The notes under the pieces are model-generated. The model saw nothing but the letters and a program-made list of their open reading frames with translations, ran no database searches and was not told the origin of the DNA. A DNA stretch of 64,000 nucleotides from a virus (lineage: Duplodnaviria > Caudoviricetes). The position numbers and the translations under genes are program-made. The stretch spans positions 2,403 through 66,402 of IMG/VR virus record IMGVR_UViG_3300031998_000074, one strand, 5' to 3'. Positions 1 through 64,000 of the stretch are shown in pieces. Each line of letters starts with the position of its first letter. Within the stretch, counting starts at the first letter, position 1.

Positions 1-194
1 TATCCTTGCTGCTGATTCTGAAGGTAATGAATATGGAACTACTAATTTTAAACATACATTATGTCCTATCATGGATAATGATGATAGAGTAATAGGATTA
101 GCATTGTTCCCATGGGAAGAACATATCATGGATGCAGACGAGGCTTGTTTTCGTGATAGATCTGCCACATTAAAAAATATACGGGAGGAATAAT

Positions 195-464
195 ATGGAA
201 TGTAAAACTTATATAGACAGTTGTATTGATGCTGTAGGTAATAGGTTTACTATAGGTGATACACTTGCACATGTACAGTGTAAGATACATGGATCAAATA
301 CCGGGCTTACTATTGAGAAGGGCATTGTTAGAGCAATAGAAATGCTTGGTACTCCAGGTCCGGATGAAGATAACATAGACGGTTACTTTACAATTTGTCT
401 TGAAAAGAAAGGCTGTAAAAGACTATCTAGGGTAACACCCAGTAAAGTTATCAAATTACCATAA
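195..464 (+). CDS. hypothetical protein
   Basis: ORF with GGAGG RBS, co-oriented with neighbours. Confidence 0.6.
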   Translation: MECKTYIDSCIDAVGNRFTIGDTLAHVQCKIHGSNTGLTIEKGIVRAIEMLGTPGPDEDNIDGYFTICLEKKGCKRLSRVTPSKVIKLP

Positions 465-479
465 AATATTGTAAACTAT
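463..479 (+). promoter_or_regulatory. phage promoter-like motif, variant copy (AAAATATTGTAAACTAT)
   Basis: one mismatch to the motif repeated at 6227, 12052, 18581, 22525 and 28180; intergenic, just before the 483 ATG. Confidence 0.55.
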
Positions 480-482
480 ATT

Positions 483-1052
483 ATGAAGAAATATTTTACT
501 TCCGATCTTCATCTATCACATCGCAATATATTAAAGTATTGTGGTCGTCCTTTCAAAGATGTAGACCGTATGAACCAGGTACTAATTAACAATATTAATA
601 CCCGGGCTACCAAAGATGACTTACTTATTCATGTAGGAGACTTCGCTTGTTATGGTAAGGAACGCGGTACAGAATGTACCCGGACTAAACCGGAAGTATA
701 CCTGGCTAAGATTAATCCTAAAACTATATTAATAAAAGGCAATCATGATATTAATAACAAAGTTAAGTATATGTGTAAAGGATTAATTATAGATATAGGT
801 AAGTTAGGATCAGTTACGGTATCCCATTATCCTACAACCGAAACTCATTGCCCTGTTGAGTTTCGTACCAAAGGTACACAAATTGGTTACCACATTTGCG
901 GACACGTACATAACCAATGGAAATTTATGTATGATCCGATATGTAATAAGATCAATATCAATGTAGGTGTTGACGCTTGGAATAACCAAATTGTATCTGA
1001 GGACGAACTTATAAATGCTGTATGCAAATACAAGAAGGAAAATAATTTATGA
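483..1052 (+). CDS. calcineurin-like metallophosphoesterase
   Basis: motifs SDLHL, VGDF, GNHD, SHYP, GHVH. Confidence 0.85.
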   Translation: MKKYFTSDLHLSHRNILKYCGRPFKDVDRMNQVLINNINTRATKDDLLIHVGDFACYGKERGTECTRTKPEVYLAKINPKTILIKGNHDINNKVKYMCKGLIIDIGKLGSVTVSHYPTTETHCPVEFRTKGTQIGYHICGHVHNQWKFMYDPICNKININVGVDAWNNQIVSEDELINAVCKYKKENNL

Positions 1053-2353
1053 CGTATGAAGTATTAAAGAATATACAAACATTCATTGATAAGATGAATG
1101 CCAGTAATAAACGCAAAGATAAAGAAGATGTATTATTAACCTGTATGACACCTGATGTTAAATGGATCTTAAAACTTACGTTTGATTACGATGTTCAGTA
1201 TTATATTACAAGTAAGTCTGTTGAGAAACTTAAGAACTCATTAGGAGGTGCTACTACAGGCTTAAATTTATTTGAAGTATTAGATAGATTAAGACTCAGA
1301 CTTGTAACCGGACATGCCGCGGCCCAGCTTGTACACTCATTCGTTTTAACATACCCGGAATATAAAGATCTTATATATAAAATTATTGATAAGGATCTTG
1401 GTATAGGTGTATCAACTAAGATCATTAATGATGTACATCCTGGTATGATTAAGGAATTTAAGGTAGCCTTGGCTCAGGACCTACGTAAGAAGCCTAATAC
1501 CAAACTGGACCAGGACTGGGTAATAGAGCGTAAACTTGATGGTAACCGCGCTATACTTATCTACAACAATCCACAGGATATACACATCTATTCCAGAACC
1601 GGACTTGAATATACAACCTTAAATAAAATCAAAGAGGATGTAGTAAAGCTTGGCTTAGATAATGATACAGTACTAGATGGTGAGATCTGTTTGGTAGATG
1701 AGAATGATCATGAAGACTTCCAGGGTATTATGAAAGAGATCCGTAGGAAAGATCATACCATACCAAATCCTAAATATATAGTCTTTGACATGATGCCTCT
1801 ACCTGTATTTGAAGGTAAAGAAACTGGACTTGTATATAAGGACAGGATCCAACCGTTCATAGATAAATATACCGAACTGGACCCGGATACTATTAAAACT
1901 ATTACACCTATTGAGTATGTAGACTACTCGGAAGAGAACCTTACATTCATGAAGAAGTGTGTAGTAGATGATCACTGGGAAGGTTTAATGTTCCGTAAGA
2001 ACGTACCATATGAAGGTAAGCGTACGGATAATTTATTAAAATTTAAGTCTTTCTTTGATGCAGAGTATGCGGTACTTGGCATTGAAGAAAGTGAGGTAAC
2101 CGAAGTTATTAATAATAAAGCTAACAAGATTAAAGCTGTTGGTAGCCTATTAATAAAGCATCAAGGATATACAGTCAAGGTTGGGTCCGGACTCAGTTTG
2201 GAACAGCGTAAAGCCTGGCTCCAAAACCCGGATCAAATCATAGGCAAAACCATCACGGTAAAGTACTTCGAGGAAACCACCGACCAAAATGGAAATAAAA
2301 GTTTACGTTTCCCTACTTTGGTTGTAGTGCATGGCGAGGAACGCGAAATATAA
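1049..2353 (+). CDS. lig: ATP-dependent DNA ligase
   Basis: KLDG adenylation motif, LDGE, EGLMFR, LLKFK, C-terminal OB fold (VGSG, SLRFP). Confidence 0.93.
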   Translation: MTYEVLKNIQTFIDKMNASNKRKDKEDVLLTCMTPDVKWILKLTFDYDVQYYITSKSVEKLKNSLGGATTGLNLFEVLDRLRLRLVTGHAAAQLVHSFVLTYPEYKDLIYKIIDKDLGIGVSTKIINDVHPGMIKEFKVALAQDLRKKPNTKLDQDWVIERKLDGNRAILIYNNPQDIHIYSRTGLEYTTLNKIKEDVVKLGLDNDTVLDGEICLVDENDHEDFQGIMKEIRRKDHTIPNPKYIVFDMMPLPVFEGKETGLVYKDRIQPFIDKYTELDPDTIKTITPIEYVDYSEENLTFMKKCVVDDHWEGLMFRKNVPYEGKRTDNLLKFKSFFDAEYAVLGIEESEVTEVINNKANKIKAVGSLLIKHQGYTVKVGSGLSLEQRKAWLQNPDQIIGKTITVKYFEETTDQNGNKSLRFPTLVVVHGEEREI

Positions 2354-2715: not shown

Positions 2716-3291
2716 ATGGAATACAAAATTCTATTAACAATAATAAGGATCTTTCTGTTTACAATCATAGCATTGTTTTTTATACACACTGCAGGTTGTA
2801 CTGTCAATTGTGAAGAGCATTTAGATGGTTGTGTACATCTGCTTAGGGATATGCAAAGACAAATGTCTATGGTAATACATTCAACACAAGCTGATGAACC
2901 AAAGTATACTTATTCATTTAGCTATGATACAGTAGATTCTTTAGATGCTGACATCTATGAAGTAGATGCCCGGATTACAGCTTATAATAACTTGCCGGAA
3001 CAAACTGATAGCACACCGAACACTATGGCAAGTGGCCGTCATGTATATGAAGGTGCAGTAGCTTTAAGCCGTGATTTACTAGCTCAATATAAAATAAAAT
3101 GGGGAGATATAGTATGCCTAGAAAAGCCAGGATTATGTTACATTGTGGAAGATACTATGAACGATAGGTATGATAACCGGGTTACGCCCGGGTCCGGACA
3201 TAGGGTAGACATATTTATGTTTTCACGTGAAATGGCTTTACAGACAAACTATAAAACCAAAATTAAAATTCTAAAATGGAGGAAACTATAA
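2716..3291 (+). CDS. 3D-domain cell-wall hydrolase-like protein with N-terminal anchor
   Basis: ITAYN...TMASG, VALSRD, VEDT, RVDIFM typical of the 3D (three-Asp) domain. Confidence 0.8.
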   Translation: MEYKILLTIIRIFLFTIIALFFIHTAGCTVNCEEHLDGCVHLLRDMQRQMSMVIHSTQADEPKYTYSFSYDTVDSLDADIYEVDARITAYNNLPEQTDSTPNTMASGRHVYEGAVALSRDLLAQYKIKWGDIVCLEKPGLCYIVEDTMNDRYDNRVTPGSGHRVDIFMFSREMALQTNYKTKIKILKWRKL

Positions 3292-6650: not shown

Positions 6651-7389
6651 TGAAAGCTTAAAGTCTTATTTAGATAAAAAAGGATTTATTCCAGAGGACT
6701 TATTTAAAGCTGGAGCTGTTATCGCAGATGCCGGTGAATTGTACTATACAAGCCCGGACTATAATATTCCTGGTCATCCTGAGTTTAGTACACACTGGAC
6801 TGAAGATAAGTCCGGGATCATGTCCAAAGACTTTGAAGATAAAGAGCTCAGTGTACTCGATATAATCAATAATAAATTACAAGTATATAAAGCATCCGGT
6901 TGTAATGCCGCAATCTTTGTTCCGATATTCTCGTTACAACAACAGTTAGTCGGTATGTCAATCCGTAAGATGCATGACACAAGTAAACATGATTCCTGGT
7001 TTAAGCCCGGGTGCCGTAAGGTAGATACAGTCTACGGGTTAAATACGGCTTTCAAAGATATTGTAATGAAACAGTCGATCATACTTACCGAAGGTGTTTA
7101 TGATACCATCGCATTACGTAAGTACGGATTCACACAGGCATGTGCTCTGTTAGGGACACACATGTCAAACTTACAATTTTTTCAGATAGCATCCATCACT
7201 AAGAACATATGTCTGTGCCTGGATAATGATGAGGCGGGTATCACAGCCTGTCAGAAGATCATAGACACATACAAAAAAATATATGGTGATGACGTACAAT
7301 TTTTTAAACTTGTACTTGATAAAGATCCGGACGAATTCTTAAAAGAAAAAGGTCCGGACGAATTAAAGCGGAGGCTACAGAAGTGTTAA
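6634..7389 (+). CDS. DNA primase catalytic (TOPRIM) subunit lacking the zinc-binding domain
   Basis: VYGL, TEGVYD, ALLGT, LDNDEAG, KDPDE. Confidence 0.85.
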   Translation: MISLNDESLKSYLDKKGFIPEDLFKAGAVIADAGELYYTSPDYNIPGHPEFSTHWTEDKSGIMSKDFEDKELSVLDIINNKLQVYKASGCNAAIFVPIFSLQQQLVGMSIRKMHDTSKHDSWFKPGCRKVDTVYGLNTAFKDIVMKQSIILTEGVYDTIALRKYGFTQACALLGTHMSNLQFFQIASITKNICLCLDNDEAGITACQKIIDTYKKIYGDDVQFFKLVLDKDPDEFLKEKGPDELKRRLQKC

Positions 7390-9288: not shown

Positions 9289-10950
9289 ATGAAAAGAGTT
9301 GTCTTTACAGGAGATACTTGCAGGAACAAACTTAAAGAGGGGATAGACTTTGCAGCTAATGCAATTGCACCTACACTTGGACCCCGTGGTGCATCGGCTA
9401 TTATTCACACAAATTCATTTCCATATCCGGCAGTAATAGATGACGGTGTCACTATTGCCCGGGCCCTTTACCATGAAGATGGTGCCGTTAATACAGGCGT
9501 GGCGTTGATTAAAGAAGTTGCATCACAAGCTGATGATTCCGGTGGTGATGGTACAAGCACAGCCACATTATTTACACAACGTATTATCAGCGAAGGTATT
9601 AGACAAATCGCGGCGGGCACATCTAAACGTGCTATTAAAAATGGTATTGAACGTGCTACCAGGATTGTAACAGAATCAATAAAATCCCGGGCACATCAGG
9701 TCAAAGACATACACGACTTAACTAATATTGCAACAGTATCTTCTAACGATAAAGCTCTAGGAGAACTTGTAGCAAAGGCAATTGATAAAGTAGGTAAGGA
9801 AGGCCGTGTACAAGTAGAAGAATCAAACTATACTGAAACTGTTTTAGATACCATAAGTGGTATGACAATCAATAAAGGTATGGTAGATCGTGGGCTTGCT
9901 AATACTAAACAAGGTACATTTGAAAAGAAGAAATGTAAAATCGTTTTAATGGATAAGGAGCTCGGCTTACTTGAAGCAACTAAATTACTTGAAGTCGCGC
10001 TTGTTAAATCTGTACCTATACTTATCTTCGCGGAGACCTTCTCACCTGTAGTTATTGGTGGTATGAAATACAACGCAGCTCAACTTAAACTTGCAACCTG
10101 TGCAGTAAGGAACCCGGCTCATGGAGATCTTAAACGTGAACAGATGTCAGATATCTGTGAGCTTACAGGTGCCACAGTGCTAGGTGATGCAAATGGTATT
10201 ACCCTCGATGCATTAAACACAAAAGAAATGGAATCCATTGATAAGTATATGCAGTACTTTGGTGAAGCAGACGTTGTGGTCAGCAACAAAGAAACAATCT
10301 TGATGGTGGAAAAGATGAGTGATCGTGCGAATAAACGTATTGAAGAATTACGCACACAACTCCAGGAACCGACCTTGACTCCTTATGATAGGGATAACCT
10401 ACAAACAAGGCTCGCAAATTTAACAGGTGGTATCTCTATCATAAAGGTCGGTGGTTATACCGACACTGAAGTAACAGCTAAGAAAGCGAAGATCGAAGAC
10501 GCAAAGAACGCAACTAAGTCAGCCCTTGTATCCGGATATGTAGCTGGCGGTGGCAGTGCTTACTTAAGAGCTGCGTTAGATCTTAGTGAAGTATTATCAG
10601 ATAAGGAAGCCTTAGACGCAATTCCGGAAGAAGAAATTATAGGTATGCATATTGTGTTACAAGCACTTCCGGTTGTTACAGAGCAACTCGCAGAGAACTC
10701 CGGATTAAATGGTAAGACAATCGTAGATAAGATCTATGAAAAGATAGGAACAATTTATGGCTACGGTTTAAATGCGGTAACCGGAAAACTTTGTGATCTC
10801 TATGATGAAGGTATCATAGACTCAGTACAAGTAATTATTAATTCACTTGAGAAAGCATCATCAGTATCAGCAACAGTACTTATGTCTGAAACATTGATAA
10901 CAGAGCAAACTGAAGAATGTGATAAAGTGAATTGTGGAACGCGCCGCTAA
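9289..10950 (+). CDS. groEL: group I chaperonin GroEL-like
   Basis: TLGPRG, DDGVTIA, GDGTSTAT, KIEDAKNATK, GGG. Confidence 0.95.
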   Translation: MKRVVFTGDTCRNKLKEGIDFAANAIAPTLGPRGASAIIHTNSFPYPAVIDDGVTIARALYHEDGAVNTGVALIKEVASQADDSGGDGTSTATLFTQRIISEGIRQIAAGTSKRAIKNGIERATRIVTESIKSRAHQVKDIHDLTNIATVSSNDKALGELVAKAIDKVGKEGRVQVEESNYTETVLDTISGMTINKGMVDRGLANTKQGTFEKKKCKIVLMDKELGLLEATKLLEVALVKSVPILIFAETFSPVVIGGMKYNAAQLKLATCAVRNPAHGDLKREQMSDICELTGATVLGDANGITLDALNTKEMESIDKYMQYFGEADVVVSNKETILMVEKMSDRANKRIEELRTQLQEPTLTPYDRDNLQTRLANLTGGISIIKVGGYTDTEVTAKKAKIEDAKNATKSALVSGYVAGGGSAYLRAALDLSEVLSDKEALDAIPEEEIIGMHIVLQALPVVTEQLAENSGLNGKTIVDKIYEKIGTIYGYGLNAVTGKLCDLYDEGIIDSVQVIINSLEKASSVSATVLMSETLITEQTEECDKVNCGTRR

Positions 10951-12050
10951 TGTCCGGCGCGGTCATCACAACCATTGAAAAGGTTGAGGTGTCAACCAAG
11001 TATAGTTACGTCCGGACTATTCATTTGAAGGACTTATTATATAAGGTTGTATTAGTTTCAAATCAAATATACGAAGTAGGTGATAAAGTTTTATACATAC
11101 CGGACCGGGCTAAACTACCGGTCCGGCTACTAAAGGCCTTTGGCTTTTGGGACTATAGGGGAAATCATGGTCTTTTATCCGGTGTTAACTATAATGTGGT
11201 ACGCCCGTATTGTTTTAATGATGATTATGATTATTATTCTTGCGGTATTATTATACTACTCAGTAAGGTACTAGAAGCAGGAATTACATTAAGGGAAGAT
11301 CAAAGAACGCTCGATTCACAACTTGGAATAACCTATTTGGAAAAAAAGAACCCATATATATTTAGGGGAGATGAGTACTTCTTAGATCTTAACATTAACA
11401 AGAACATAGCAGTTGAACTAGAACGTTGCTATAAGCTATTTGAAAACACGGATGTTGTTTGTGAAGAATATATCAGAGGCAGGCAATTTTATATTACGTT
11501 TGATAAGAAGAAGATGTTCGAGCTGGCACATGGTATGTATGCTCGGATTCATATTACAGGCCAAAATTATGCTAAGTGTCGTTTTCTTTCTAATACCAAA
11601 CGAAATATGGAAGGTAACTTATTTTGCATAGTCACACATAAGAACGACTTTACAAATAAAGCTGTCGCAATATTACGTATGTATCCGAACATGGACAGGA
11701 TCACCTTTAATGTAGTGGTCCGGACTCAAGCTTTCGGAGCCAAGTTTACAGAGCAACTAAAGCATAGTGAGTACGTCGTTACGGATATATACATAGGTAA
11801 TTCAAATACCGGATATTTCTTTCCGTTAGAGCGTCGTAATTATTTATGTTCTTATTACGGAATGCCGGCACCTAAGATGATATATTCCGGACCTTATAAT
11901 TATGATGTCTTACATGGCCTGGCAAACATAGGTAATACAGCTAAGCATGTAGCCTGTACAGGTATTATTATAAGGAACCAAACAGATACCCGGGCCGTAT
12001 TGTACTCTGAGGATGCAAGATTACGCTATAGTTATTGTGTAAAAAATTAG
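10932..12050 (+). CDS. RNA ligase (DRB0094/Rnl2-like) homologue, apparently degenerate
   Basis: N-terminal OB/tRNA-binding-like module (YEVGDKVLYIP, YSCGII); motif I region reads EEYIRG with no lysine. Confidence 0.55.
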   Translation: MWNAPLMSGAVITTIEKVEVSTKYSYVRTIHLKDLLYKVVLVSNQIYEVGDKVLYIPDRAKLPVRLLKAFGFWDYRGNHGLLSGVNYNVVRPYCFNDDYDYYSCGIIILLSKVLEAGITLREDQRTLDSQLGITYLEKKNPYIFRGDEYFLDLNINKNIAVELERCYKLFENTDVVCEEYIRGRQFYITFDKKKMFELAHGMYARIHITGQNYAKCRFLSNTKRNMEGNLFCIVTHKNDFTNKAVAILRMYPNMDRITFNVVVRTQAFGAKFTEQLKHSEYVVTDIYIGNSNTGYFFPLERRNYLCSYYGMPAPKMIYSGPYNYDVLHGLANIGNTAKHVACTGIIIRNQTDTRAVLYSEDARLRYSYCVKN

Positions 12051-12051
12051 G

Positions 12052-14063: not shown

Positions 14064-14549
14064 ATGCAAAAACAGATTTTATTAGACGGAGACAAAAAGC
14101 TATTTACTGTATGTGACCCAGTCACTTTTCCCTTATCTGAAAAAGATAAAGGTACTATCCAGGATTTAATTGACACAACGATGGCAATTGACAATGCACT
14201 AGGCGTGGCAGCACCACAAATAGGTGAAACTGTACGTATCTTCGTGTATAATAATACAAAGGAGCATGGCACTGCAACTATGCGCGTCATGATTAATCCT
14301 ACTATAGTGAAAGAATATGGATCAACAAAGATGGGTTATGAAGGATGTCTATCTTTCCCGGGTTTTGTATATGAAGTACCTGCCTATGAGCTTATTAAGG
14401 TATCATATCAAGATGAGTCCGGACAGAAACATACACTTAAATTACGTGGCTTTGAAGCACGTATCTTTCAGCATGAGTTCAGACATCTAGATGGAATTTG
14501 CTGGCCGAAAGAAGCAATCAAACATTCAAAAGAGGAATTTAAAAAGTAA
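14064..14549 (+). CDS. def: peptide deformylase
   Basis: GVAAPQIG, EGCLSFPG, QHEFRHLDG. Confidence 0.93.
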   Translation: MQKQILLDGDKKLFTVCDPVTFPLSEKDKGTIQDLIDTTMAIDNALGVAAPQIGETVRIFVYNNTKEHGTATMRVMINPTIVKEYGSTKMGYEGCLSFPGFVYEVPAYELIKVSYQDESGQKHTLKLRGFEARIFQHEFRHLDGICWPKEAIKHSKEEFKK

Positions 14550-17983: not shown

Positions 17984-18572
17984 GATTTTAGATTGTACAC
18001 CGGACCCGGCTTTCACTATTAATATGACAGCTCGTCAGTGTTACAACAGCCGAGATAAATATGACAAAACCAAAGGAGTTGCCTTTGTCAAGGGCTTGAT
18101 TAGGTCCGGGCACTTAACACCTTTGGAATCAGCGAGTGTTGTATTTGATATTGAGGGTATATCACGAGCATGCTTAGCGCAGTTAACGCGACACCGTATT
18201 GGCGTGAGTTTTTGTGTTCAAAGCCAACGATATGTCAATCAAGAAAAAAGCGCGTATATCATTCCGCCGGACATTGTGAAAAATCAGAACGCCAGGTCGG
18301 TATATGAGAATGCTCTCATGACAACCCGGGCTGCATATCGGGAACTACTCCAATTGGGCATTAAAAAAGAAGATGCCCGGATGGTATTAACAGAGAGCAC
18401 TTGTACTAACCTCTCGATGACAGTTAATTTCCGTGAGCTACGTCATATATTTGAACTCCGTATGGCGAAGGATGCCCAGTGGGAAATCCAAGAGCTTTGT
18501 AAAAGCATGGCAAGCGAGCTTGATAAGCGTAGTTTGCGATGGGTTTACGAGGATATTGCAGATAAGTTGTAA
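17973..18572 (+). CDS. thyX: flavin-dependent thymidylate synthase
   Basis: GHLTPLE, RHRIGVSFCVQSQRY, EDAR, AQWEI. Confidence 0.95.
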   Translation: MIVKILDCTPDPAFTINMTARQCYNSRDKYDKTKGVAFVKGLIRSGHLTPLESASVVFDIEGISRACLAQLTRHRIGVSFCVQSQRYVNQEKSAYIIPPDIVKNQNARSVYENALMTTRAAYRELLQLGIKKEDARMVLTESTCTNLSMTVNFRELRHIFELRMAKDAQWEIQELCKSMASELDKRSLRWVYEDIADKL

Positions 18573-22470: not shown

Positions 22471-22524
22471 TTGACACATAGAGCCCGGACCCTCCTTCAA
22501 ATAAAAAGTCCGGGCCTTTTAAAC

Positions 22525-51435: not shown

Positions 51436-53757
51436 CTACTTGTTAAAAACTGACCTTAAATAGTTTGCATAACCATATGTGTATCGTTCTTCAATTAATA
51501 CACCGTCTTTATCATAAAAATTCAAAACTACTTTTGTATATGCAGGTTTATACATGTCAATAACTTTCTTTATAACTTCTCTATTATATTGTGTATCATA
51601 CCTGTCATAAACGTCTATTTGCCACGTTGGCATGCGATCTTTTTGATCGTACAAAATAATTGGGTTGGCCACGATGCTAACATTCTCATCATCTGCCAAG
51701 TAATATAACTCAGATAACGGTTTCTGTAAAGAATCAGCATGGGAGTAAATAACGTTAAATATCTTGTCCTTGTACTCTGTAATACGTGGTGCACATCCGG
51801 TCAAGTCATATACCAAATTATAAATTGTTTTATACATTGTTTGGCCTTTCAAGTTCTCAACCATACACTGGAAAGCGTGTCTTTCCTCAGCTGTATTTCT
51901 GAATAATGACGTATCTAAATCGAAGACAGTTTCCCATCTCTTGTTACCTGTTACAATATCGGATTCAGATACACTTAAGTTTCTGCGCTGTTCAGTTACA
52001 TACTGCATAAAATTATCTTCGGCGTGAGCCTTTGCATTAATAATGTTTGCCGCCTCACCTGAGTCAAAATCGGTTGTATATACCTCACCATCATAAGGTA
52101 ATGTTTTCTGGAATACAGCTTCAAAAACAGGTTTACTTATATCGTATGGTAACAGGAACTTGGCTTGTTTATACAATATTTCAACTAACCAGTTATCAGT
52201 TGCTTTGTCGTAAGTATATCTAACTGTACTATATTTAGGAATATCCGGTAAACGTATCCCTTGTTCATATGGGAACCTATATACAAATAAAGGTATAGAC
52301 CCGGTATTTGTAATGGTATAATCTGCCCCGTCCGACGGATTTTCTGGGAGTACTACAATTTCATCATCTAACTGTAAAGACTTAACACGATATATTAAAT
52401 ATGAGTGCGCAAAATCGGACTTATACTGTTGTGATTTGAAACGTACTCTATAATAAAAGGAGTAGGATTGTCCGGGCTGGCGCTCCGGCATCTGTATTGT
52501 TGCTGCATAAACCAATCCTGTTAAATCGTATGTCCCACTATCTTTGGAGCCACAAATAAGTTCCACCGGATCCCATGGGTTTTTATCTTCTGGGATAGCA
52601 ACAAAGCTTTCCTTTGTATATGTTTTCTTATTTGGTGAATCAAACGTGTCAACATCATCTATTTCCAAAATGAAATCAACTGTATCTGGAGTGAAATACC
52701 TTACACATTTCTTTGACTCTTTTAAATGTTTAATATGTACTGGGTTAATCTTAGCCTGTCCAGACACATACCCAATATATTTACCAATACCTTCAGATAC
52801 GGAAGAAAGGGAATACTCACCAACATATTGTCTATCATAATAAAGAACACTGGTTCCGTCTTTTAATGTTAATGTATATGTATGTGTGTTTCCAATATCG
52901 GATCTTAGCACTATTGTAGTCGAACCAAAGATAAGTTGATTTCTTGATATAATCAAAGTTGCGCGGTTAACACCGTCATCTATGATCATTTCATACGAAG
53001 CGTCAACATCATAATTGTCCGGACCGGTAAAGGATACGAATGGTGATCCGCTACTTTCAATAAATTGATCATCTTGATCAAGATAGCCTAATACGCCATT
53101 CTGGTTTATAGCATGCACAGTTAAGACAGGCTCATCATTTTTCGTAATATAAACTGCTTGAACCTCACCGGACCAATTTGCAAGTGAGCTGTCTTCTGCT
53201 GTAAATAATTTTAACGGAGATGTTGCGGTTTCAAATTCACCAGGGTGTGTAAATAACATTTCATCATTAATAGAAACTTTAGGTCCGGAAACTGTAAAAG
53301 TATAAAGACCTGATTTTATAAAAACGTAAGTGCCCGTTGCTGTTTGTGTTCCGTATGTAAATATTATGTTATCTTCACCTGACCCGGCTACCGCAAAAAT
53401 GAATTGACCTAATGAATTGTCAACCGCGTTTCCAAAAAGAACTTGCGGAGTTTCATTTTCAATATCTATATATGCAGTGATTTTAATTGTATGATTTTCA
53501 GTTGGGATAATATCCGTTGTTATTTCTTGTGTACCATCACAAATCAACCCATAATCGGGAAATTTAGCAACGACCTCCATGGAGTTGCCAATTGAAGGAA
53601 CAGCTATATTATCTGTAAGAGATAGGTAGCATTTTTCATTAGCTACCGGTTGTAAAATGATAAATTCAGAATCGGCCGTAGGCATAACATACGGCTGAGG
53701 TGTGATATAATCAACACCTGTTACAATCCAATTGTTTAATTTATATAATGATCCCAT
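51436..53757 (-). CDS. baseplate-associated protein with lectin-like domains
   Basis: ConA-like segment (GLICDGTQEITTDIIP) and a C-terminal baseplate-wedge-like segment. Confidence 0.5.
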   Translation of the reverse strand: MGSLYKLNNWIVTGVDYITPQPYVMPTADSEFIILQPVANEKCYLSLTDNIAVPSIGNSMEVVAKFPDYGLICDGTQEITTDIIPTENHTIKITAYIDIENETPQVLFGNAVDNSLGQFIFAVAGSGEDNIIFTYGTQTATGTYVFIKSGLYTFTVSGPKVSINDEMLFTHPGEFETATSPLKLFTAEDSSLANWSGEVQAVYITKNDEPVLTVHAINQNGVLGYLDQDDQFIESSGSPFVSFTGPDNYDVDASYEMIIDDGVNRATLIISRNQLIFGSTTIVLRSDIGNTHTYTLTLKDGTSVLYYDRQYVGEYSLSSVSEGIGKYIGYVSGQAKINPVHIKHLKESKKCVRYFTPDTVDFILEIDDVDTFDSPNKKTYTKESFVAIPEDKNPWDPVELICGSKDSGTYDLTGLVYAATIQMPERQPGQSYSFYYRVRFKSQQYKSDFAHSYLIYRVKSLQLDDEIVVLPENPSDGADYTITNTGSIPLFVYRFPYEQGIRLPDIPKYSTVRYTYDKATDNWLVEILYKQAKFLLPYDISKPVFEAVFQKTLPYDGEVYTTDFDSGEAANIINAKAHAEDNFMQYVTEQRRNLSVSESDIVTGNKRWETVFDLDTSLFRNTAEERHAFQCMVENLKGQTMYKTIYNLVYDLTGCAPRITEYKDKIFNVIYSHADSLQKPLSELYYLADDENVSIVANPIILYDQKDRMPTWQIDVYDRYDTQYNREVIKKVIDMYKPAYTKVVLNFYDKDGVLIEERYTYGYANYLRSVFNK

Positions 53758-53759: not shown

Positions 53760-55907
53760 TTAATTACTATGCGCAAAACTTACTACTATACCTGCATTAT
53801 TTCCTTTCTTACTGGATGCTCCCCAATCTGTACCACCCACACAGGTGAGTGAATCTACCCGGTAATGTGTTCCTGAGCTGCCTTGTGTAAAGTCTGAGGC
53901 AACGTATCCATTCCCACCTTTAGCAGATAGATCACCTCCGCTTGCTGAAGACGTTCCTGATCCGCCATGTCCACCATACGGAGTTCCAGAGGTATGAGAG
54001 CTACTGCTACCCGATGATCCATCATAGTTAAGTCCGGACCCACCCCAGGTACCAGCACCTCCTCCGTAACCCCCGCCACCACCAGCAAAACTGTACCAAT
54101 TTTGGTTACCGCTGCTAGTGTAAGATCCTGTTCTAACAGACCCGGCCCCGCCTCCTCCGGCTACAAGTTTAAGAGAGTTATCTATATATAAAGCTAAACC
54201 GGTGTGGCCACATGTGCCTGTATATGTACGAGAGTCCGCGGTTCTTGATGGCGCATTAGCACCAATACGTTGTATTTTTACAACAGCACCTGCATATAAA
54301 TATACTGTACAAGTTGCTGTACCACCACGACCGCTACCTGCATATTTACTAGACGCAGCACCTGATGGTGAAATACTACTAGTGCTATCAGATCCCGCGG
54401 CTTTCAATGTAATAGCATAATTACCAGCTGTAACATCTGATATAGTAGTTGTGAACAATGTGTACACATTTGACGTACTATCTGTACCGGAGACACTGTA
54501 CGACGGGTAATCAATTGCCATAGTTCCGGTAACGGTTGTTGTAGTGCTTACTGTTCCGGTACTTGTAAAAGATTTGTACCCGGACTTAGTTGCATTAATC
54601 GTATAATTAAAGTTAACACCTTCTTCCAACAAAGCTACTGAGCCGTTAGTCCCATTTATATTTACGGTATCCGGAACCGGGCTAATTTCAGCTGTTAATC
54701 TGCCTGCCGTGATCACTGTATCAGCGCTTATTACTTTAGATCCAGTATAGCTTATTACTCCAGTATCCGTGGCGGTATAACTAATTGTCGTGCCGTCCAC
54801 AATGTATATTGCATCAGTACCGGACCCGTTAATATCAAAAGTTGCATTTTGTCCTGTAACCGCATAAACAGGAATTGTTAAATCTATTAAAGCTGTACCA
54901 CTTCCAGTAGTACCTGTGTATCCATTACGAGATACTGTCCAGAGATATTCTATTCCAACAGGTAATTTTGTTGTTGCGGAACCCACTCCTGTAAAAGTTG
55001 AGCCCAACGAGGTAATAGTAACCACTGCGTCATTAGCAGTAACCGCTATAGCCTTATAATCAACATATATACTGTCGGTGACATTTGTACTTCCGATCTG
55101 TGTATATACCGGAGAACCTAACAACGTAATAGAGTAAGAATATTCAAACGTTGTTCCACTAACAAAGAACACCCCTGAGGTTGTCTGGTTATTGATTTGT
55201 ATAACAGCATCGTTTTCAGAGCATGTTACAGATAGCCCATTTAATTGGATATTTGTTGTATCCAGGGCTGTCCCAATAGCCGTGAAAGTACTAAACCCAG
55301 GCTTACTCATAGAATACGTATATGTAAATGGGGTTCCCTTGTTAAAGAAGACGGAGTTCGTCTCTGCACCGTTAATTACAATGGTTGTATCCGGAATATC
55401 AGTATTAATTTGGAAAGAGCCTATATCTACGGTTGTATCAGAGGAAGCTTGCCCGGACCTGGTCAACGTTGTATACCCCTCCTTAGACACGGAGTATACA
55501 TAAGAAATTGGAGCTGAATTGTCAAAAAGTAGGCCGGATGTACCGGTAATCATTTCTCCGTGGGTTTCTGATGTAAGGAGTGTAGACGTTTCTGCCGGAG
55601 CATTTAATGTAACGGAATTAATAGTTATAGTTAAGTTCTGATTTAAAATCCCGGACCCGGACATTGTATTGTACCCCGGCTTAGAAACAGACCAGGAATA
55701 TTCAGTACCAGGCTCAAGTGAAAGTGATCTGGTCTGGACACCGTTTATTATAATAGTTGCATCTGTAAGAGCACAATTTACCTTAATTGTACGAAGCCCG
55801 GCCCCTGATAGCTTAAATACGTATAAGCCATCATGGTCGTAAAACTTACGTCTAATCCTGTACAAGCGATTATTTAACTTAAGGTATGATGCAACTCTGC
55901 GTTTCAT
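53760..55907 (-). CDS. repeat-rich (PEGA/Ig-like) receptor-binding protein with a Gly-rich C-terminus
   Basis: repeated YSxSKxGY / I-ING units and GGGG tracts. Confidence 0.6.
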   Translation of the reverse strand: MKRRVASYLKLNNRLYRIRRKFYDHDGLYVFKLSGAGLRTIKVNCALTDATIIINGVQTRSLSLEPGTEYSWSVSKPGYNTMSGSGILNQNLTITINSVTLNAPAETSTLLTSETHGEMITGTSGLLFDNSAPISYVYSVSKEGYTTLTRSGQASSDTTVDIGSFQINTDIPDTTIVINGAETNSVFFNKGTPFTYTYSMSKPGFSTFTAIGTALDTTNIQLNGLSVTCSENDAVIQINNQTTSGVFFVSGTTFEYSYSITLLGSPVYTQIGSTNVTDSIYVDYKAIAVTANDAVVTITSLGSTFTGVGSATTKLPVGIEYLWTVSRNGYTGTTGSGTALIDLTIPVYAVTGQNATFDINGSGTDAIYIVDGTTISYTATDTGVISYTGSKVISADTVITAGRLTAEISPVPDTVNINGTNGSVALLEEGVNFNYTINATKSGYKSFTSTGTVSTTTTVTGTMAIDYPSYSVSGTDSTSNVYTLFTTTISDVTAGNYAITLKAAGSDSTSSISPSGAASSKYAGSGRGGTATCTVYLYAGAVVKIQRIGANAPSRTADSRTYTGTCGHTGLALYIDNSLKLVAGGGGAGSVRTGSYTSSGNQNWYSFAGGGGGYGGGAGTWGGSGLNYDGSSGSSSSHTSGTPYGGHGGSGTSSASGGDLSAKGGNGYVASDFTQGSSGTHYRVDSLTCVGGTDWGASSKKGNNAGIVVSFAHSN

Positions 55908-57192: not shown

Positions 57193-59799
57193 CTATATTC
57201 CTCTAGCAACCCAACATGCTTGTACATCATGTAAAGCGCCGTCGTTGTTATCACTTCCTAACATCCGGCATCCGAGGGTTGTATATGAATCTACAGAAAC
57301 TATATCGGCAGACTTATATGTTGGATCAACAATTGTGCCTGAATTTCGTGTTGCTGTACAATTGTATTGTGTATTTGAAAAACTACGTAAAAATGTTATA
57401 GTTGCGTAGCCATTAACTAACGTTACAACTCCACCTTGTTCAAGCCAAACGCGCTGTGTTTTATTAGCATCACTAAAATACTCTCTATACCATTCAGTGC
57501 CATTTACGTAAGTTGTTACATATAAACCATTTGTGCTGAATAAAGTTGTATCTGCCTTGGCTGCAAGGTCTGTCATAACCTGATCTACATCAACTACATA
57601 GTCAGGTTTAACACTAGAGGCAACAACTATATAATAGTAGCCCTTGATTGTTTGTGGCTGTACTGTTGTTGAATTTCCGTATATTGCATTGGAGACTGAA
57701 GCTAGTGTTGATTGTAAAGTTACCAAGTTGGATCCGGTTTCTTCATAAAACAAGCTTGAATTTCCACCGTCATAATGCCCGTATGCGGATACAGAGTGGT
57801 CATGATCCGGTAACCCGGCTTCAACTAAATCACCAAGTGCTGTTACAGTTAAAGTACCTTCGACAATACCAGTTACTTTGGGTAGCCTGACTGTATTATT
57901 AGTTGCATCATATACAAATTTACCACATACACCATAAGTTGTCACAGATTGTTGCCAGTTTTCTTCTGTTGTAAAGCAGTCTGGGTAATCAATACTTAGT
58001 CCTTGTATATAAGTTGCAAAGGCCGCGTAAGACCCATTCCCGTCTAGTAATGCACCATCAAGCAAATGCAAACATGCATCTGTTTGCGGAAGTAAACTAA
58101 AAATAGTTTCACCTATATTGCGTGAATAATTAGGTTTCCAATCCGCACGTTCCCCATCTGTAACAAGTATTTCACCTGCATGCCCGGCCTGGTTAGGTAG
58201 CCCGGCCTGCGTGAGTCCGGTTCCACCAACGTAAAAATATAAGTACATTTCCGTGGCTGGAGGTTGTACTGTATTTGCGTTGTCTTTAAATATAGGGTTG
58301 AAATCACTTAACTTCGTGTATGTACTTTCTAAATTGTTACTACCACTAGCAATAGATCCGTCTACTGACCCACTTTCATTACTTAATTGAATACGGCCAT
58401 TTGGTAATCCAGGTTCAACGTAATTGCCCGGACCGGTACGGAGCCCGGTAAATCCAAATTTGGTTCTAGGCAGTTTAAATAGTTTGTTTTCTGTATCTAA
58501 AATATAGTACCAGGCTACGCCGGTTTCATTGTATAGTGTTGCTATCTCATCCTGTAATTCTGGTGTAGATATCTTAAATCCCTTTGGCGTTGTGCGTATA
58601 TCTATTAAATATTTAGATGAATAATAGTATCCATTTGTTGCACTTGCTATTACATATGGTAAAACTAAAAAACGACCAGCCGCAAATAAAACTGAACCTG
58701 CCCACAGCGATGGAACACTATCTTTTATAATATTCCAAGTAGCACCGTCTGTAGAAGCATAAAACCTTGTACCATTTGTGGACATAATATCAGACGAGGC
58801 CGTAACATATGTACCATTACTATATGCTATACCCATTGGGACAGATCCTAAGGATGCAGAGTGCTCTATCCACGTTGCACCATCATCAGAAATCCAGGAT
58901 CCTTGTGCATGTACCGCTACAAATTTGTTGTCACCAAATGTCACAGCATACACAGATTTGTTAGCTGATGGAACTGTGCTACTTAACCAGGTTATACCAT
59001 CGTCTGAATAAGCACATACGTAAGATCCACCTCCAGCAGCAACGAACCTATTATTACCGTAAGCAACGCTCCACCATTGTGCGGATGTTGGAAGTGTGGT
59101 AGCTGTCCAGTTTATACCATCGGTAGAATATGCGGCTTTGTTGCTTCCATAAGCAACAGCTACAAATTTACCATTTCCATAAGTAATACCTGTCCATCCC
59201 GCAGAACTTGGTAATGTTGTAGCCGTCCAGTTTCTACCATCAGATGAGTAGGCCGCAACATCCGATGATGATTGAGAACTGCCTGCAATAGCAACAAACA
59301 TATTGTTACCAAAAGCAACCCCAGACCATGGGGCAGAGGCTGGCATCGTCATTGTAGCCCAGTGCACACCATCTTGAGATATGGCCCCTGTTGTAGTTGC
59401 TGGAGTATTTGTGCCATAGCATACCAATACAATGGTACCATTTCCATATGCACCATTCCAGGTTCCTAGATCGGTTACAACAGGTAAATCTGTCGAATAT
59501 GTCCAATTATTGACAGTACCAATTGCTTCTCCAGGTGTTCCGTGGTCCCATTCGTCTTTTAATAAATTGTATACACCTTTATAAACATCACCACTCTGCC
59601 AGCTAAAGGTATCTGCTCTCAACCAGCAAATATCTTCTGCTATATGGTCCATCCACATAGGAGTTAACAAAGGTATACTTAAATTATCAGTTACCTCAAC
59701 TGCATATAACTCTGCGTTACTAGGGTCAATAGTATCATAAATTTCTTCAGACATGAAGTTTATTTTTACTGCTGGTATTTCTGTTGTTCTCTTTATCAT
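57193..59799 (-). CDS. tail-fibre protein with beta-propeller-like repeats and a collar-like domain
   Basis: repeated W-x-VAYGNGxFVA...SxDG-x-W units; RLPKVTG/EAGLP collar motifs. Confidence 0.75.
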   Translation of the reverse strand: MIKRTTEIPAVKINFMSEEIYDTIDPSNAELYAVEVTDNLSIPLLTPMWMDHIAEDICWLRADTFSWQSGDVYKGVYNLLKDEWDHGTPGEAIGTVNNWTYSTDLPVVTDLGTWNGAYGNGTIVLVCYGTNTPATTTGAISQDGVHWATMTMPASAPWSGVAFGNNMFVAIAGSSQSSSDVAAYSSDGRNWTATTLPSSAGWTGITYGNGKFVAVAYGSNKAAYSTDGINWTATTLPTSAQWWSVAYGNNRFVAAGGGSYVCAYSDDGITWLSSTVPSANKSVYAVTFGDNKFVAVHAQGSWISDDGATWIEHSASLGSVPMGIAYSNGTYVTASSDIMSTNGTRFYASTDGATWNIIKDSVPSLWAGSVLFAAGRFLVLPYVIASATNGYYYSSKYLIDIRTTPKGFKISTPELQDEIATLYNETGVAWYYILDTENKLFKLPRTKFGFTGLRTGPGNYVEPGLPNGRIQLSNESGSVDGSIASGSNNLESTYTKLSDFNPIFKDNANTVQPPATEMYLYFYVGGTGLTQAGLPNQAGHAGEILVTDGERADWKPNYSRNIGETIFSLLPQTDACLHLLDGALLDGNGSYAAFATYIQGLSIDYPDCFTTEENWQQSVTTYGVCGKFVYDATNNTVRLPKVTGIVEGTLTVTALGDLVEAGLPDHDHSVSAYGHYDGGNSSLFYEETGSNLVTLQSTLASVSNAIYGNSTTVQPQTIKGYYYIVVASSVKPDYVVDVDQVMTDLAAKADTTLFSTNGLYVTTYVNGTEWYREYFSDANKTQRVWLEQGGVVTLVNGYATITFLRSFSNTQYNCTATRNSGTIVDPTYKSADIVSVDSYTTLGCRMLGSDNNDGALHDVQACWVARGI

Positions 59800-60494
59800 G
59801 ACACAATCCTATCAAATGCAATTAAAACTTTTCCGCTAAATCTGCAGTCCGGGTTAAACGGTACATACGCATATGCACCAGTGATAGCCCCTCCAGAGTA
59901 TATTAATTTTACGGAATCGACCTCTACCTCTTCATTTGTACTACCTGAATAAAATGTGGTTGAGATGTTGTAGACCGGAATATTAACCGGAAGTCTTAAT
60001 CGGTATTCATTGCTTTCGGCTACATATTCCCAAGAATAATTTGTAAAAGAATATAAAATTGTATTACCTGCATATAAAGCAGTTGCCACCCAGCAGCCCG
60101 GGCTTTGTACCATAGGGTCATTATTACCTGTGTACTTAAATTCACCATTAGACGTTTCAGCTGCATTAAGACAATTTTTATCTGAGTAAAGTTGGACACC
60201 TGTTGGTACAGTATCTCCGGTTGTACCAGCAAATTTTGAATAGCGAGTGCGTAAATTACCTTCACTTGCTGTATCTTCATCGTTTACTTCATAGTAAAAA
60301 ACAGGAACAACAATATCAGGTAGTTGCTCTGGGAAAAGATCATGTATGTCCGGGAACTTACGATACTCGTACAAGATACCGGACTCATAGCATAAAGCAG
60401 TAGATCCTGCAAACGCGGTCTTTATACGCTTCAGATCTTCAATGGTATCAACAATATGATACCTTACATCTATCTGTGATTGTTGTGTCCTCAT
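59796..60494 (-). CDS. hypothetical structural protein
   Basis: position in the tail module. Confidence 0.5.
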   Translation of the reverse strand: MRTQQSQIDVRYHIVDTIEDLKRIKTAFAGSTALCYESGILYEYRKFPDIHDLFPEQLPDIVVPVFYYEVNDEDTASEGNLRTRYSKFAGTTGDTVPTGVQLYSDKNCLNAAETSNGEFKYTGNNDPMVQSPGCWVATALYAGNTILYSFTNYSWEYVAESNEYRLRLPVNIPVYNISTTFYSGSTNEEVEVDSVKLIYSGGAITGAYAYVPFNPDCRFSGKVLIAFDRIVS

Positions 60495-61781: not shown

Positions 61782-63188
61782 TTAACCTATTAAAATATCG
61801 TTGCCATCAATGCGCAAGTATTCAAGTGGTGCTACCTCAATATCGGCAACGCCATCCTGATCAACTAATGCAAATTTACGCATCGGTAATTTGATGTAAT
61901 CGACCCCAGCCGTATTTTCGACTATATTGATAATATCAGATTGTCGTAACGCCTGTTGTAATTTAAAGTTATTAATAAAGCTTTCAATACCATCTTTACA
62001 AGAGTTGATGACAACATCTTTATTATATCCGGGCAACGTAACAATATCAAAATCCATACCAACATTTAATCTTGTGGTTTCTCTTATTGCCACATCAGAT
62101 GTAATTATACGGACATCATCGTCATCAAAGGCATCCTGTGTCCTTTTAATAAGAGAGTTATATGTGTATGTAATCGTGTAATACGGAGACTCTGTGGTTA
62201 AAATAACGTTATTATATGTATCCGTTGTCCACACTAATTTATCTTTTCCTCTAGGAGATCCTGCATATATAGATGTAGTATCTTTTGCAATAATAAATCC
62301 GTGATTTTCTGTGTAAGTTACCCCGTCTAATACAACAGATACTGTTCCTTTAACAACAGGCTGGTTCTGTAAAATAACAGATTGTGTTGCAGATTCTGTG
62401 CTAACTTCTTGTGTAACACTTGAATGTTCTTCACCCAAAATATAAATATCTACCGTACCCGGACCACGCACTGAAAATTCAGAATTTGGATCTACAACAA
62501 CCGCATCTGTAATAGCTGGATCCGATAGTGCCTTTTGTAAATACGCAGCCTTTGTTCCGTAGACGCGTCCTTGTAAACTTAATCTAACACGATTTATAAG
62601 ACTAACTGTATCTTCTACATCTGCACCGTTTACAATTGCATTTGTGTTATATACTTCAGAAATGCCGGCAGGGGCACTTGAAATAACTGTAATGGACCCA
62701 GAAGGAACATTTCCTGATGTGCCAGGGGTTGTAGCTTGAATACTTACAGTAACCTCATAATACCCGGTTACCGGATTTATAGGGGTACTCTCTGTAATAA
62801 CACCTGAAGTTGTAGTCGTAAAAGCTTGTGAATCAGAACCACCTGTACTTACTGTTAAGCCTACAGGGATTGTGTAGACAGCCCCGGACGTAGGTAGGGT
62901 AGAAGCACAAAATGTTGCTGTACCAAATGCTTGGGTTGCTTCATTTCTGTAAATACCAAAAGACGCGGCTAGTATGTCGGCTTCTTCATCTGTAAAGGAG
63001 TCAGGATCAAACAGATACAGAAGTCTTACACGATCTTCTTCTGAGTATAAAGATGCTAATTCGTTGGCAAAGGATTCAACACCTAAGTCAACAGCCACAT
63101 TACCTGTGGAACTTAAGTCAATTTGCGGGTTAGTATAATTAATCCGCTTTTTTAAATCTTCTATGATTTCAATTGCTGTCTTTTGCAT
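61782..63188 (-). CDS. baseplate J-like protein
   Basis: FGIYRNEATQAFG, IQATTPGTSGNV, GADVED...R. Confidence 0.88.
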   Translation of the reverse strand: MQKTAIEIIEDLKKRINYTNPQIDLSSTGNVAVDLGVESFANELASLYSEEDRVRLLYLFDPDSFTDEEADILAASFGIYRNEATQAFGTATFCASTLPTSGAVYTIPVGLTVSTGGSDSQAFTTTTSGVITESTPINPVTGYYEVTVSIQATTPGTSGNVPSGSITVISSAPAGISEVYNTNAIVNGADVEDTVSLINRVRLSLQGRVYGTKAAYLQKALSDPAITDAVVVDPNSEFSVRGPGTVDIYILGEEHSSVTQEVSTESATQSVILQNQPVVKGTVSVVLDGVTYTENHGFIIAKDTTSIYAGSPRGKDKLVWTTDTYNNVILTTESPYYTITYTYNSLIKRTQDAFDDDDVRIITSDVAIRETTRLNVGMDFDIVTLPGYNKDVVINSCKDGIESFINNFKLQQALRQSDIINIVENTAGVDYIKLPMRKFALVDQDGVADIEVAPLEYLRIDGNDILIG

Positions 63189-63189
63189 A

Positions 63190-63756
63190 TTACATTATTG
63201 TAACCGACAATGTCAGTACGACTCCTTTTATTTGTGTTAAAAGCGTTACACCTGCTTCTGTTAATTTAGTTTCCGCCTCTGCTAAGTCTTTCCGGGCGTT
63301 GTCCAGATCTTCTTTGGCTTTAGTACACTCTTGTAAAGCCTGAGTTACCTGTGCAGCTTCAGCTGAAACATCTGATGCTGTAGAGGCAATCCTAGGATCA
63401 CTGATAACACCCGTATGTTGTGCTGGACCACCAACAGCTGTTATTTGTCCTCCAGGAACACTCATTGCAAAGGTCATTACCTTTTGTGCATATTTATCTA
63501 ACTCTGTGTTATATTCTTTTTGTTTAACTTCTAAGTTGAGCTCAGCCGCGTGTACGTTCCCGTCGCATGTATCATAATTTGTTGCTGCTTCATCGTATGC
63601 TGTTTGTGAATTTTGCAACGTTGTTACAACAGATGTTAGGTCTGGTAATGCAGCCATGACTCTTGGGGCATTTAGTATTGCGGCTATTATCTGGTTCGAG
63701 CTTTGTGTCGCTGAAACATTTATACCGCGTTCTCTAAAATAATCTAGTACGGTCAT
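63190..63756 (-). CDS. coiled-coil structural protein
   Basis: helical heptads, upstream of baseplate J. Confidence 0.5.
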   Translation of the reverse strand: MTVLDYFRERGINVSATQSSNQIIAAILNAPRVMAALPDLTSVVTTLQNSQTAYDEAATNYDTCDGNVHAAELNLEVKQKEYNTELDKYAQKVMTFAMSVPGGQITAVGGPAQHTGVISDPRIASTASDVSAEAAQVTQALQECTKAKEDLDNARKDLAEAETKLTEAGVTLLTQIKGVVLTLSVTIM

Positions 63757-63968
63757 AGGCTCCTCAATGTATTATAATCCGGAGCTTGAGGATTAGCCTC
63801 TATTAACTTCAACATTGTCTGCTCTGTAAACGCCCCTTGTTCCAAAACAGTATCATCCGGATCATATGTTCTGGGACAAATTTTATATTTATCAATCGGT
63901 GTCAAATCATCATATTCTGCCGCTGATACCAATTCAAATTTTGTGGTTTGAGTATCATATTTTACCAA
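63753..63968 (-). CDS. hypothetical protein
   Basis: operonic overlap with the next gene. Confidence 0.5.
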   Translation of the reverse strand: MVKYDTQTTKFELVSAAEYDDLTPIDKYKICPRTYDPDDTVLEQGAFTEQTMLKLIEANPQAPDYNTLRSL

Positions 63969-64000
63969 CGGAAGATTCCCTGTAATATAAAAATAAATGT

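Follow-up and report, generated by a model that had tools for sequence, protein, structure and literature searches.

The 8-bp palindrome GYCCGGRC as the unit of a CCGG excess in an uncultured cattle-gut phage

The DNA analysed here is a stretch of 64,000 nt (the window), corresponding to bases 2403-66402 of the 66,402-nt linear IMG/VR virus record IMGVR_UViG_3300031998_000074; its source is an uncultured cattle-gut (rumen) phage, and the record is contained in bovine gut metagenome runs, those with only a small share of it being set aside as evidence of habitat. An earlier reading of the letters (the sequence-only reading) had reported a window-wide excess of the palindrome CCGG and had ascribed it to selection for a distributed site. 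The genome-wide, DNA-level signal is upheld by the present analysis, but CCGG is replaced as its unit: the actual unit is an 8-bp palindrome, GYCCGGRC (half-site RYCCGG), of which CCGG is the core, and CCGG in the opposite flank class (RCCGGY) is not enriched. A strand-symmetric, frame-independent, genome-wide fixation bias converts near-cognate sequences into GYCCGGRC, mostly by synonymous changes.

CCGG excess and the longer word

CCGG occurs 354 times in the window (361 times in the record), compared with 87 copies expected from independent and identically distributed (iid) bases and 236 from a Markov model of maximal order (order 2); the ratio to iid expectation is 4.07, and the Markov z-score of 11.7 is the top value of all 256 tetramers. 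The excess extends over both gene arms, as had been claimed, as well as over all three reading frames and non-coding DNA (23 copies vs. 5.7 expected). The 11 copies that the sequence-only reading had counted in positions 1-2400 were found again, whereas the approximately 10 reported for 44.6-45.6 kb came to 8 on a recount of 44,600-45,600. The window has a GC content of 38.5% rather than the estimated one-third, which raises the expectation per 2,400 nt from about 2 to about 3.3 copies.

The excess acts at the DNA level, and not via proteins or codons. When synonymous codons were shuffled within genes, with the protein and per-gene codon usage fixed, 188±10 copies of CCGG were expected, compared with 338 observed (z=15); the excess was present in all three frames (observed/expected 141/110, 146/63, and 51/14). 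A shuffle that additionally fixed all dinucleotides, and in which frame 0 is invariant by construction, gave an expectation of 248±6.8 in genes (z=13). A z-score near zero under control of codon usage and of the CG and GG dinucleotides had been named as the outcome that would remove the signal; the values obtained were 15 and 13. Codon choice depends on the neighbouring bases in the corresponding way: TCC makes up 65% of TCN codons before GG, compared with 15% before a single G and 15% elsewhere; CGG makes up 22% of arginine codons after C and 2-4% otherwise; and the CCG codon share is 44% before G and 19-32% otherwise.

That the excess is a by-product of ordinary composition (codon usage, amino-acid content, and neighbouring-base preferences) is an explanation that covers part of the numbers. 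Fixing the protein and the codon usage accounts for around half of the fourfold excess over iid (expectation of 188 vs. 87) and leaves bare CCGG at 1.4-1.8x over proper null models; CCHG words, which exclude CCGG, are still at 1.56x over iid. Bare CCGG has a Karlin's tau of 0.98, and its excess shrinks to 1.12x in a log-linear fit that includes every three-position margin. The latter two measures absorb much of a true boost, in that planting a pure 4-mer boost of equal size gave a tau of only 1.33 and a log-linear ratio of 1.50x. The shuffles that preserve codons and dinucleotides (z=13-15) contradict a purely compositional origin, as do the odds ratio between a left C and a right G, which is 3.07 with CG in the middle and 0.8-1.6 with any other middle, and the preference for TCC, which requires GG and not merely G. 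Furthermore, unrelated phages (59 loci) show a median CCGG/iid ratio of 0.54 and no value over 1.55. Together with the 16-fold excess of the longer word described below, these results largely refute ordinary composition, to which we assign hardly any probability.

Bare CCGG is not the whole story. When CCGG was split by its flanks and each class compared with synonymous shuffles, RCCGGY was at 0.86x (40 vs. 47), CCGG with one good flank at 1.6x, and YCCGGR at 3.0x (157 vs. 52, z=19). Among the dinucleotides on the 5' side of CCGG, GC (6.4x), GT (5.2x), and AC (3.2x) are enriched, whereas CN, GA, AA, and AG are at 1.1x or below, and the preferences on the two sides of CCGG are mirror images of each other. 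Genes contain 190 copies of the half-site GYCCGG/CCGGRC vs. 34 expected (5.6x, z=28; 200 copies in the record), and 39 copies of the full site GYCCGGRC vs. 2.4±1.45 under the synonymous null (16x; maximum of 8 in 400 shuffles). The record contains 41 full sites (38 in the window), equivalent to 617 per Mb; approximately 0.8 copies would be expected from base composition by a hand estimate (approximately 50x), and 27.7 if the two halves were independent. Full sites use frames 0, 1, and 2 and encode many different peptides, with two of the 41 being non-coding. Sequence contexts that the sequence-only reading had singled out recur here, with GTCCGG (60 copies) and CCGGAC (59) being the top 6-mers, and CCCGGG present in 30 copies.

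Restriction sites and short palindromes are normally avoided by phages, not accumulated. In the window, TCGA (0.37x), CTAG (0.43x), TTCGAA (0.14x), ACGCGT (0.12x), and many other 6-mer palindromes (0.3x or below) are under-represented; thus, CCGG departs from the pattern of restriction-site avoidance, whereas TCGA, CTAG, and many 6-mers fit it. The phage builds up one 8-bp palindrome while still avoiding others, which accords with the distributed site envisaged in the sequence-only reading.

The full sites in the window are as follows (coordinates are window positions; no strand is given):

2185..2192, GTCCGGAC, DNA ligase gene
3192..3199, GTCCGGAC
6752..6759, GCCCGGAC, primase Toprim gene
7352..7359, GTCCGGAC
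9457..9464, GCCCGGGC, GroEL-like gene
11010..11017, GTCCGGAC, RNA ligase-like gene
11718..11725, GTCCGGAC
14417..14424, GTCCGGAC, peptide deformylase gene
18104..18111, GTCCGGGC, ThyX gene
19423..19430, GTCCGGGC
19825..19832, GCCCGGGC
22483..22515, two non-coding sites, GCCCGGAC at 22483 and GTCCGGGC at 22508, downstream of tRNA-Thr
24379..24386, GCCCGGGC
24527..24534, GTCCGGAC
25769..25776, GTCCGGGC, helicase gene
27744..27751, GTCCGGAC, DnaB-like gene
27979..27986, GCCCGGGC
29751..29758, GTCCGGGC
32831..32838, GCCCGGGC
33906..33913, GCCCGGGC
38374..38381, GTCCGGGC, PolA gene; common to a relative with 83% PolA identity
38597..38604, GTCCGGGC, PolA gene
39922..39935, two overlapping sites, GTCCGGGCCCGGGC, PolA gene
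42529..42536, GTCCGGAC, minus-strand structural arm
43090..43097, GTCCGGAC
43124..43131, GCCCGGAC
43458..43465, GTCCGGGC
44639..44646, GTCCGGGC
45533..45540, GTCCGGAC
45629..45636, GTCCGGGC
52470..52477, GTCCGGGC
53017..53024, GTCCGGAC
54032..54039, GTCCGGAC
55451..55458, GCCCGGAC
58426..58433, GCCCGGAC
60096..60103, GCCCGGGC

The two non-coding sites at 22483-22515 are mutually complementary and can pair into an 8-bp stem that encloses a 17-nt loop; a T-rich stretch comes next, an arrangement that reads as terminator-like.

Distribution along the genome and among relatives

CCGG density is even across genes (chi-squared p=0.80, tested against a Poisson model whose rate scales with composition), and the spacing between copies is exponential (Kolmogorov-Smirnov p=0.56; dispersion index 1.03). 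A test for periodicity, which the sequence-only reading had suggested, gave none in the window, and neither periodicity nor clustering of CCGG was found there apart from a small surplus of pairs 5-6 nt apart (14 consecutive pairs vs. approximately 4, around three times the expectation). Half-sites are distributed between the strands (53 top-only vs. 65 bottom-only) without bias in either gene arm, and the orientation bias of polar motifs such as Chi and KOPS was not found for them. An association of CCGG with hairpin stems, which had also been noted, dissolved on counting: 3.3% of CCGG copies lie in perfect stems of at least 6 bp, compared with 3.0% of the genome. Because the sites lack extra conservation (see below), periodicity, and strand polarity, positioned binding sites and oriented recombination signals are disfavoured.

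Relatives were fetched via PolA homologues and fall into three levels of PolA identity to the phage (83%, 70%, and 54-61%). The CCGG/iid ratio declines from 4.07 in the window to 3.3 in the 83% relative, 2.3 in the 70% relative, and 0.85-1.9 in the 54-61% relatives, and the context-specific codon bias declines in parallel. The 83% relative has the same grammar as the window, with 73 half-sites vs. 14.4 expected, 14 full sites vs. 0.7, and RCCGGY at 22 vs. 27, whereas the GYCCGGRC grammar is absent from the 70% relative and from the 54-61% relatives. Where full sites could be aligned between the window and the 83% relative, five of 16 are common to both, mostly in conserved PolA, with 11 found only in the window and a further eight only in the relative; none of 14 is present in the 70% relative. 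In the comparison of the window with the 83% relative, CCGG at synonymous positions is kept to the same degree as other synonymous bases (excess 0.25/0.13 vs. 0.16-0.24); with the 70% relative, it shows no conservation at all. Protein identity beneath lineage-specific sites is 0.68, compared with 0.71 overall, indicating no extra amino-acid change. The two sister lineages have comparable full-site densities, approximately one per 1.6-2.1 kb.

Because the word is found in the 83% relative but not in the 70% relative, and because its sites are mostly lineage-specific, it is young and still arising independently in the two sisters, mostly synonymously. On this comparison, the fixation bias started after the split from the 70% relative and has acted separately in the window lineage and in its 83% sister. 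In contigs of strains from public runs, which include strains with 2-5% divergence, two of the 40 differences listed (of approximately 1,160 in total) fall in CCGG, which occupies 2.1% of positions, numbers that are too few for a test of constraint.

The avoided palindromes also differ within the phage family. GATC is at 0.97x in this lineage, compared with 0.3-0.5x in distant relatives; since avoidance changes with phage sub-lineage in this way, a change in the restriction repertoire of the host is suggested, which may have coincided with the rise of GYCCGGRC. Across the family, TCGA is at 0.06-0.37x, except in the most distant relative (0.68x), and CTAG is at 0.3-0.5x.

Similar densities in two sister lineages might be expected if a dimeric, phage-encoded protein bound GYCCGGRC for compaction, packaging, or global transcription control, such that the density of docking sites is selected and not any particular site. 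An 8-bp word of two-fold symmetry whose half-sites act additively is a typical kind of target for dimeric DNA-binding proteins. However, only two of the 41 sites are non-coding, and these apparently belong to a single hairpin; the sites show no gene-boundary enrichment, periodicity, or positional conservation; and the available regions yielded no candidate binding protein confined to the two word-rich lineages. Docking sites are accordingly regarded as improbable.

Candidate origins of GYCCGGRC

We tentatively propose that GYCCGGRC is the putative target of a dimeric methylation or modification enzyme of the CCGG family, and that it accumulates through selection or methylation-biased repair; we consider this a serious possibility that falls somewhat short of probable. 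The proposal draws on the symmetric, additive specificity of the word and on its layout, which is like that of CCGG-family restriction-modification sites. A sequence-specific DNA enzyme acting as a dimer would be expected to impose an 8-bp specificity of this two-fold-symmetric, half-site-additive kind. The type II sites of this family (SgrAI, CRCCGGYG; Cfr10I/BsrFI, RCCGGY; NgoMIV, GCCGGC) likewise have a CCGG core with degenerate symmetric flanks, extend up to 8 bp, and are read by a dimer, although the phage flanks (G-Y ... R-C) match none of those listed. The enzyme might be encoded in the unsampled part of the phage genome (approximately 58%) or by the host. Accumulation could take either of two routes. 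Each modified site may confer a small advantage, as protection from host nucleases or as a mark of self; alternatively, methylation may bias mismatch correction toward new sites, in the manner of the ratchet that Elhai proposed for cyanobacterial palindromes (see below). Selection and biased repair are population-genetically equivalent in sequence data.

Several observations weigh against this proposal. By Karlin's tau, the 4-mer alone would fail (0.98). There is no match to a C5 (PF00145) or N4/N6 (PF01555) methyltransferase, or to Vsr (PF03852), in the 66 kb of the record, which is 42% complete according to CheckV; the search for a methyltransferase or modifier that the sequence-only reading had recommended thus yielded none encoded there. 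Most large open reading frames (ORFs) are replication, repair, or tail genes. Precomputed Pfam matches for approximately 7 kb further upstream, available from a longer contig, list no methyltransferase family, and those for the covered parts of the contig of the 83% relative comprise only tail-sheath, baseplate, head-fibre, and PolA matches. To our knowledge, there is no restriction or modification enzyme with the specificity GYCCGGRC, and a literature search for the octamer returned only unrelated papers on p53 and cloning.

The repair side of the proposal has a precedent in the very short patch (VSP) repair of Escherichia coli, which involves Dcm and Vsr (Bhagwat and McClelland, 1992; Merkl et al., 1992; both as cited in PMC4687349). 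As in the VSP footprint, repair tied to a cytosine-methylation site could raise the abundance of that site genome-wide. Unlike in the VSP footprint, depletion of the T:G deamination products is absent from the phage (CTGG/CCAG at 1.03x), and the variable position shows no preferential loss of T; a route through deamination and VSP repair was therefore dropped. No vsr was found in the 66 kb. TCGG/CCGA is at 0.72x, but all TCGN words are low, and no shift in the T:A ratio was seen at the variable position.

The closest parallels to an iterated palindrome of this kind are the highly iterated palindromes (HIPs) of cyanobacteria, namely HIP1 (GCGATCGC) and the alternates rCCGGy, GGCGCC, and GCsGC (Elhai, 2015; PMC4390886). 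Genomes with alternate HIPs also carry a cognate methyltransferase, as in the case of rCCGGy in Oscillatoria PCC 10802, and a methylation-biased ratchet has been proposed for HIP1 and the alternates, rCCGGy included (PMC4390886). For HIP1, selection and periodicity are reported in one study (Xu, Lawrence and Durand, 2018; PMC5861425), and evolutionary conservation with a quasi-periodic distribution in another (PMC13756078). Like the HIPs, GYCCGGRC is a palindrome, here of 8 bp, that lies far over codon-aware expectation, occurs in coding DNA in all frames at approximately one per 1-2 kb, and is lineage-specific with an unexplained cause; one of the alternate HIPs shares its CCGG core. There are also differences. 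GYCCGGRC is carried by a phage and not by a cyanobacterium; its flanks are of the opposite class (Y..R) to those of rCCGGy; no cognate methyltransferase was found in the 66 kb of phage DNA; and the word is very young, being absent at 70% PolA identity. Compared with HIP1 as reported in these studies, the phage sites are not conserved beyond neutral expectation and have no periodicity.

No explanation of HIP1-type palindromes has emerged in decades, in part owing to their great age and saturation. In a young process, gains of sites can be polarised, the enzyme can be traced by gene presence and absence in close relatives, and methylation can be checked in long reads of viromes. If the reader of the word is a modification enzyme, it would represent a new CCGG-family specificity, and the phage would provide a concrete case of a whole viral genome shaped by protective-mark selection or methylation-biased repair. 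In a more specific version, GYCCGGRC would be the phage's own 8-bp identity tag, both written and read by the phage or by a partner enzyme; its density would be selected as a self or protection mark vs. host defence, and the tag would have arisen so recently that the two sisters are still filling their genomes with it independently. This version seems unlikely to us. If it were true, the origin and spread of an iterated palindrome would be directly observable and testable, which has so far not been possible with HIP1.

A different kind of reader, the replication primase, is conceivable given that the half-site starts with 5'-GYC-3'. Phage primases recognise trinucleotides, namely GTC for T7 and GTT/GCT for T4, with pppAC or pppGC as primers. 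The phage encodes its own primase, an unusual split DnaG-type enzyme, in two genes (Toprim, at 6634-7389, and zinc ribbon, at 28800-29276); it might need an extended site, and the palindrome would serve both strands, the half-site being GYC plus CGG and equally frequent on both. However, the conserved bases are on the 3' side of GYC, outside the template positions read by T7-type primases, whereas no preference exists among the bases 5' of GYC, the ones that the primer would copy (enrichment is flat at position -3, at 1.5-2.0x for all four bases). Furthermore, ACCCGG is likewise enriched (3.2x), and the same split primase genes, the zinc-ribbon gene among them, occur in the 70% relative, which lacks the word. 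We therefore hold a role as primase start sites to be very improbable.

The signature may instead belong to the host. The host itself might be rich in RYCCGG/GYCCGGRC through methylation, repair, or mutation, with the phage drifting to the same usage and its word-free relatives infecting other hosts. The word tracks the phage sub-lineage, as does palindrome avoidance (GATC, above), a pattern suggestive of a host shift. Helicobacter genomes (approximately 39% GC) offer a bacterial precedent: CCGG is over-represented in them with a Kr of approximately 1.4-1.5, for which the authors offer no biological explanation (Rusinov et al., 2015; PMC4687349). As in the phage, a CCGG-type restriction site is over-represented, not avoided, in an AT-rich genome; the Helicobacter case differs in that the excess is modest, concerns bare CCGG, and is found in genomes with CCGG restriction-modification genes, whereas the phage signal resides in the 6-8-bp extension, with a tau for CCGG of around 1.

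Two bacterial groups lend some support to a host signature. In the Elusimicrobiota of ruminants (the 'Ca. Ruminimicrobiellum' group), which share the habitat of the phage, CCGG is at 4.5-6.3x over iid, and when the bacterial samples are ranked by tetranucleotide correlation with the phage, this group takes six of the top seven places (r of 0.53-0.59; median 0.36). In one Clostridia family (G491, G542, G524, G511, and G534), GYCCGGRC is 10-47x over a reversed control, and a 20-kb sample of G491 shares with the phage a GG-specific NCC bias (S=1.64 in G491) as well as a preference for YCCGGR rather than RCCGGY. However, none of approximately 620 sampled bacterial genomes, which are a small sample of the possible hosts, comes near the 617 full sites per Mb of the phage: the 89 genomes of the Elusimicrobiota family reach 80 per Mb at most, with similar counts in the reversed control, and the densest genomes among 401 sampled Clostridia reach approximately 220 per Mb with high control counts, while the enriched family has only 55-80 per Mb. 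The grammar of the Elusimicrobiota also differs, in that CCG/CGG is preferred irrespective of context, NCC is preferred ahead of any G, CGG goes unused as a codon, and there is no Y..R flank preference. Spacer-like matches were found neither in the Elusimicrobiota family (for window positions 1-20,000) nor in five genomes of the Clostridia family (for positions 20,001-60,000); the search in the 89 Elusimicrobiota-family genomes gave only tRNA and GroEL similarity and one 25-nt exact match of doubtful meaning. On balance, we consider a host-type signature somewhat unlikely. If a host does carry the word, GYCCGGRC could serve as a host-prediction marker for a family of approximately 160-kb rumen phages that has no cultured relative.

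As a separate observation on the Elusimicrobiota group (30-33% GC), its CCGG excess arises from a general CCG/CGG preference around CpG and from NNC|GNN codon junctions; G002 and G077-G081 thereby reach a CCGG count similar to that of the phage by a different route, with the CGG codon almost unused.

Gene content gives few further indications of the host. The phage GroEL is at most 38% identical to that of any named bacterium, the best named matches being Elusimicrobiota and a cyanobacterium; matches to ThyX include the ruminant 'Ca. Ruminimicrobiellum'; and a search for the host through bS21 homologues found only phage relatives. Shine-Dalgarno usage is strong in the phage and the nearest relatives of its baseplate protein are in Bacillus phage G and Clostridioides difficile phages, which points loosely to a Bacillota-like host.

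Gene content and neighbours of the phage record

A rightward gene arm reaches approximately 41.7 kb, and a leftward arm of baseplate and fibre genes lies beyond it. The rightward arm encodes replication and repair functions, comprising ligase, clamp loader, the split primase, helicases, a UvsX-like recombinase, SbcCD-like genes, and PolA, as well as a GroEL-like protein, RNA ligase, peptide deformylase, an FtsH-like protease, bS21, ThyX, and two tRNAs. Among cultured phages none is close, with PolA identities of 30% or below. No close relative was found by megablast against a phage reference collection or by PolA alignment against GTDB genomes; in IMG/VR, a search with PolA alone gave no close relative, the alignment returning only relatives of 32% identity or below. 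The metagenomic relatives obtained via PolA homologues are contigs of 158-184 kb. Because the contig of the 83% relative runs on into a tail sheath gene, the virion is contractile-tailed.

A series of host-like protein-quality and translation genes occupies 9289-17740, including a very divergent GroEL, RNA ligase, peptide deformylase, bS21, and a 712-aa AAA+/ClpB-D2/peptidase-M41 (FtsH-like) protein. A split thymidylate synthase with an intron after ThyX was considered and dropped, given that ThyX is complete by Pfam (1-187 of 191) and that Rfam identified no intron in the gap after the gene. The PolA gene (37700-40492) encodes a uracil-DNA-glycosylase-superfamily domain (PF03167) alongside the 3'-5' exonuclease and polymerase domains; in several relatives, PolA contains inteins or LAGLIDADG insertions, with lengths of 1230-1345 aa.

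An 82.7-kb contig from another sample carries the same genes and at least 7 kb more upstream, with approximately 20 small ORFs, one of which has a Pfam match on record (GP88). Contigs from two other gut runs carry 20 different letters in place of the 228 nt at 37135-37364, which make up most of a 70-aa ORF (37177-37389); this constitutes an indel polymorphism between strains.

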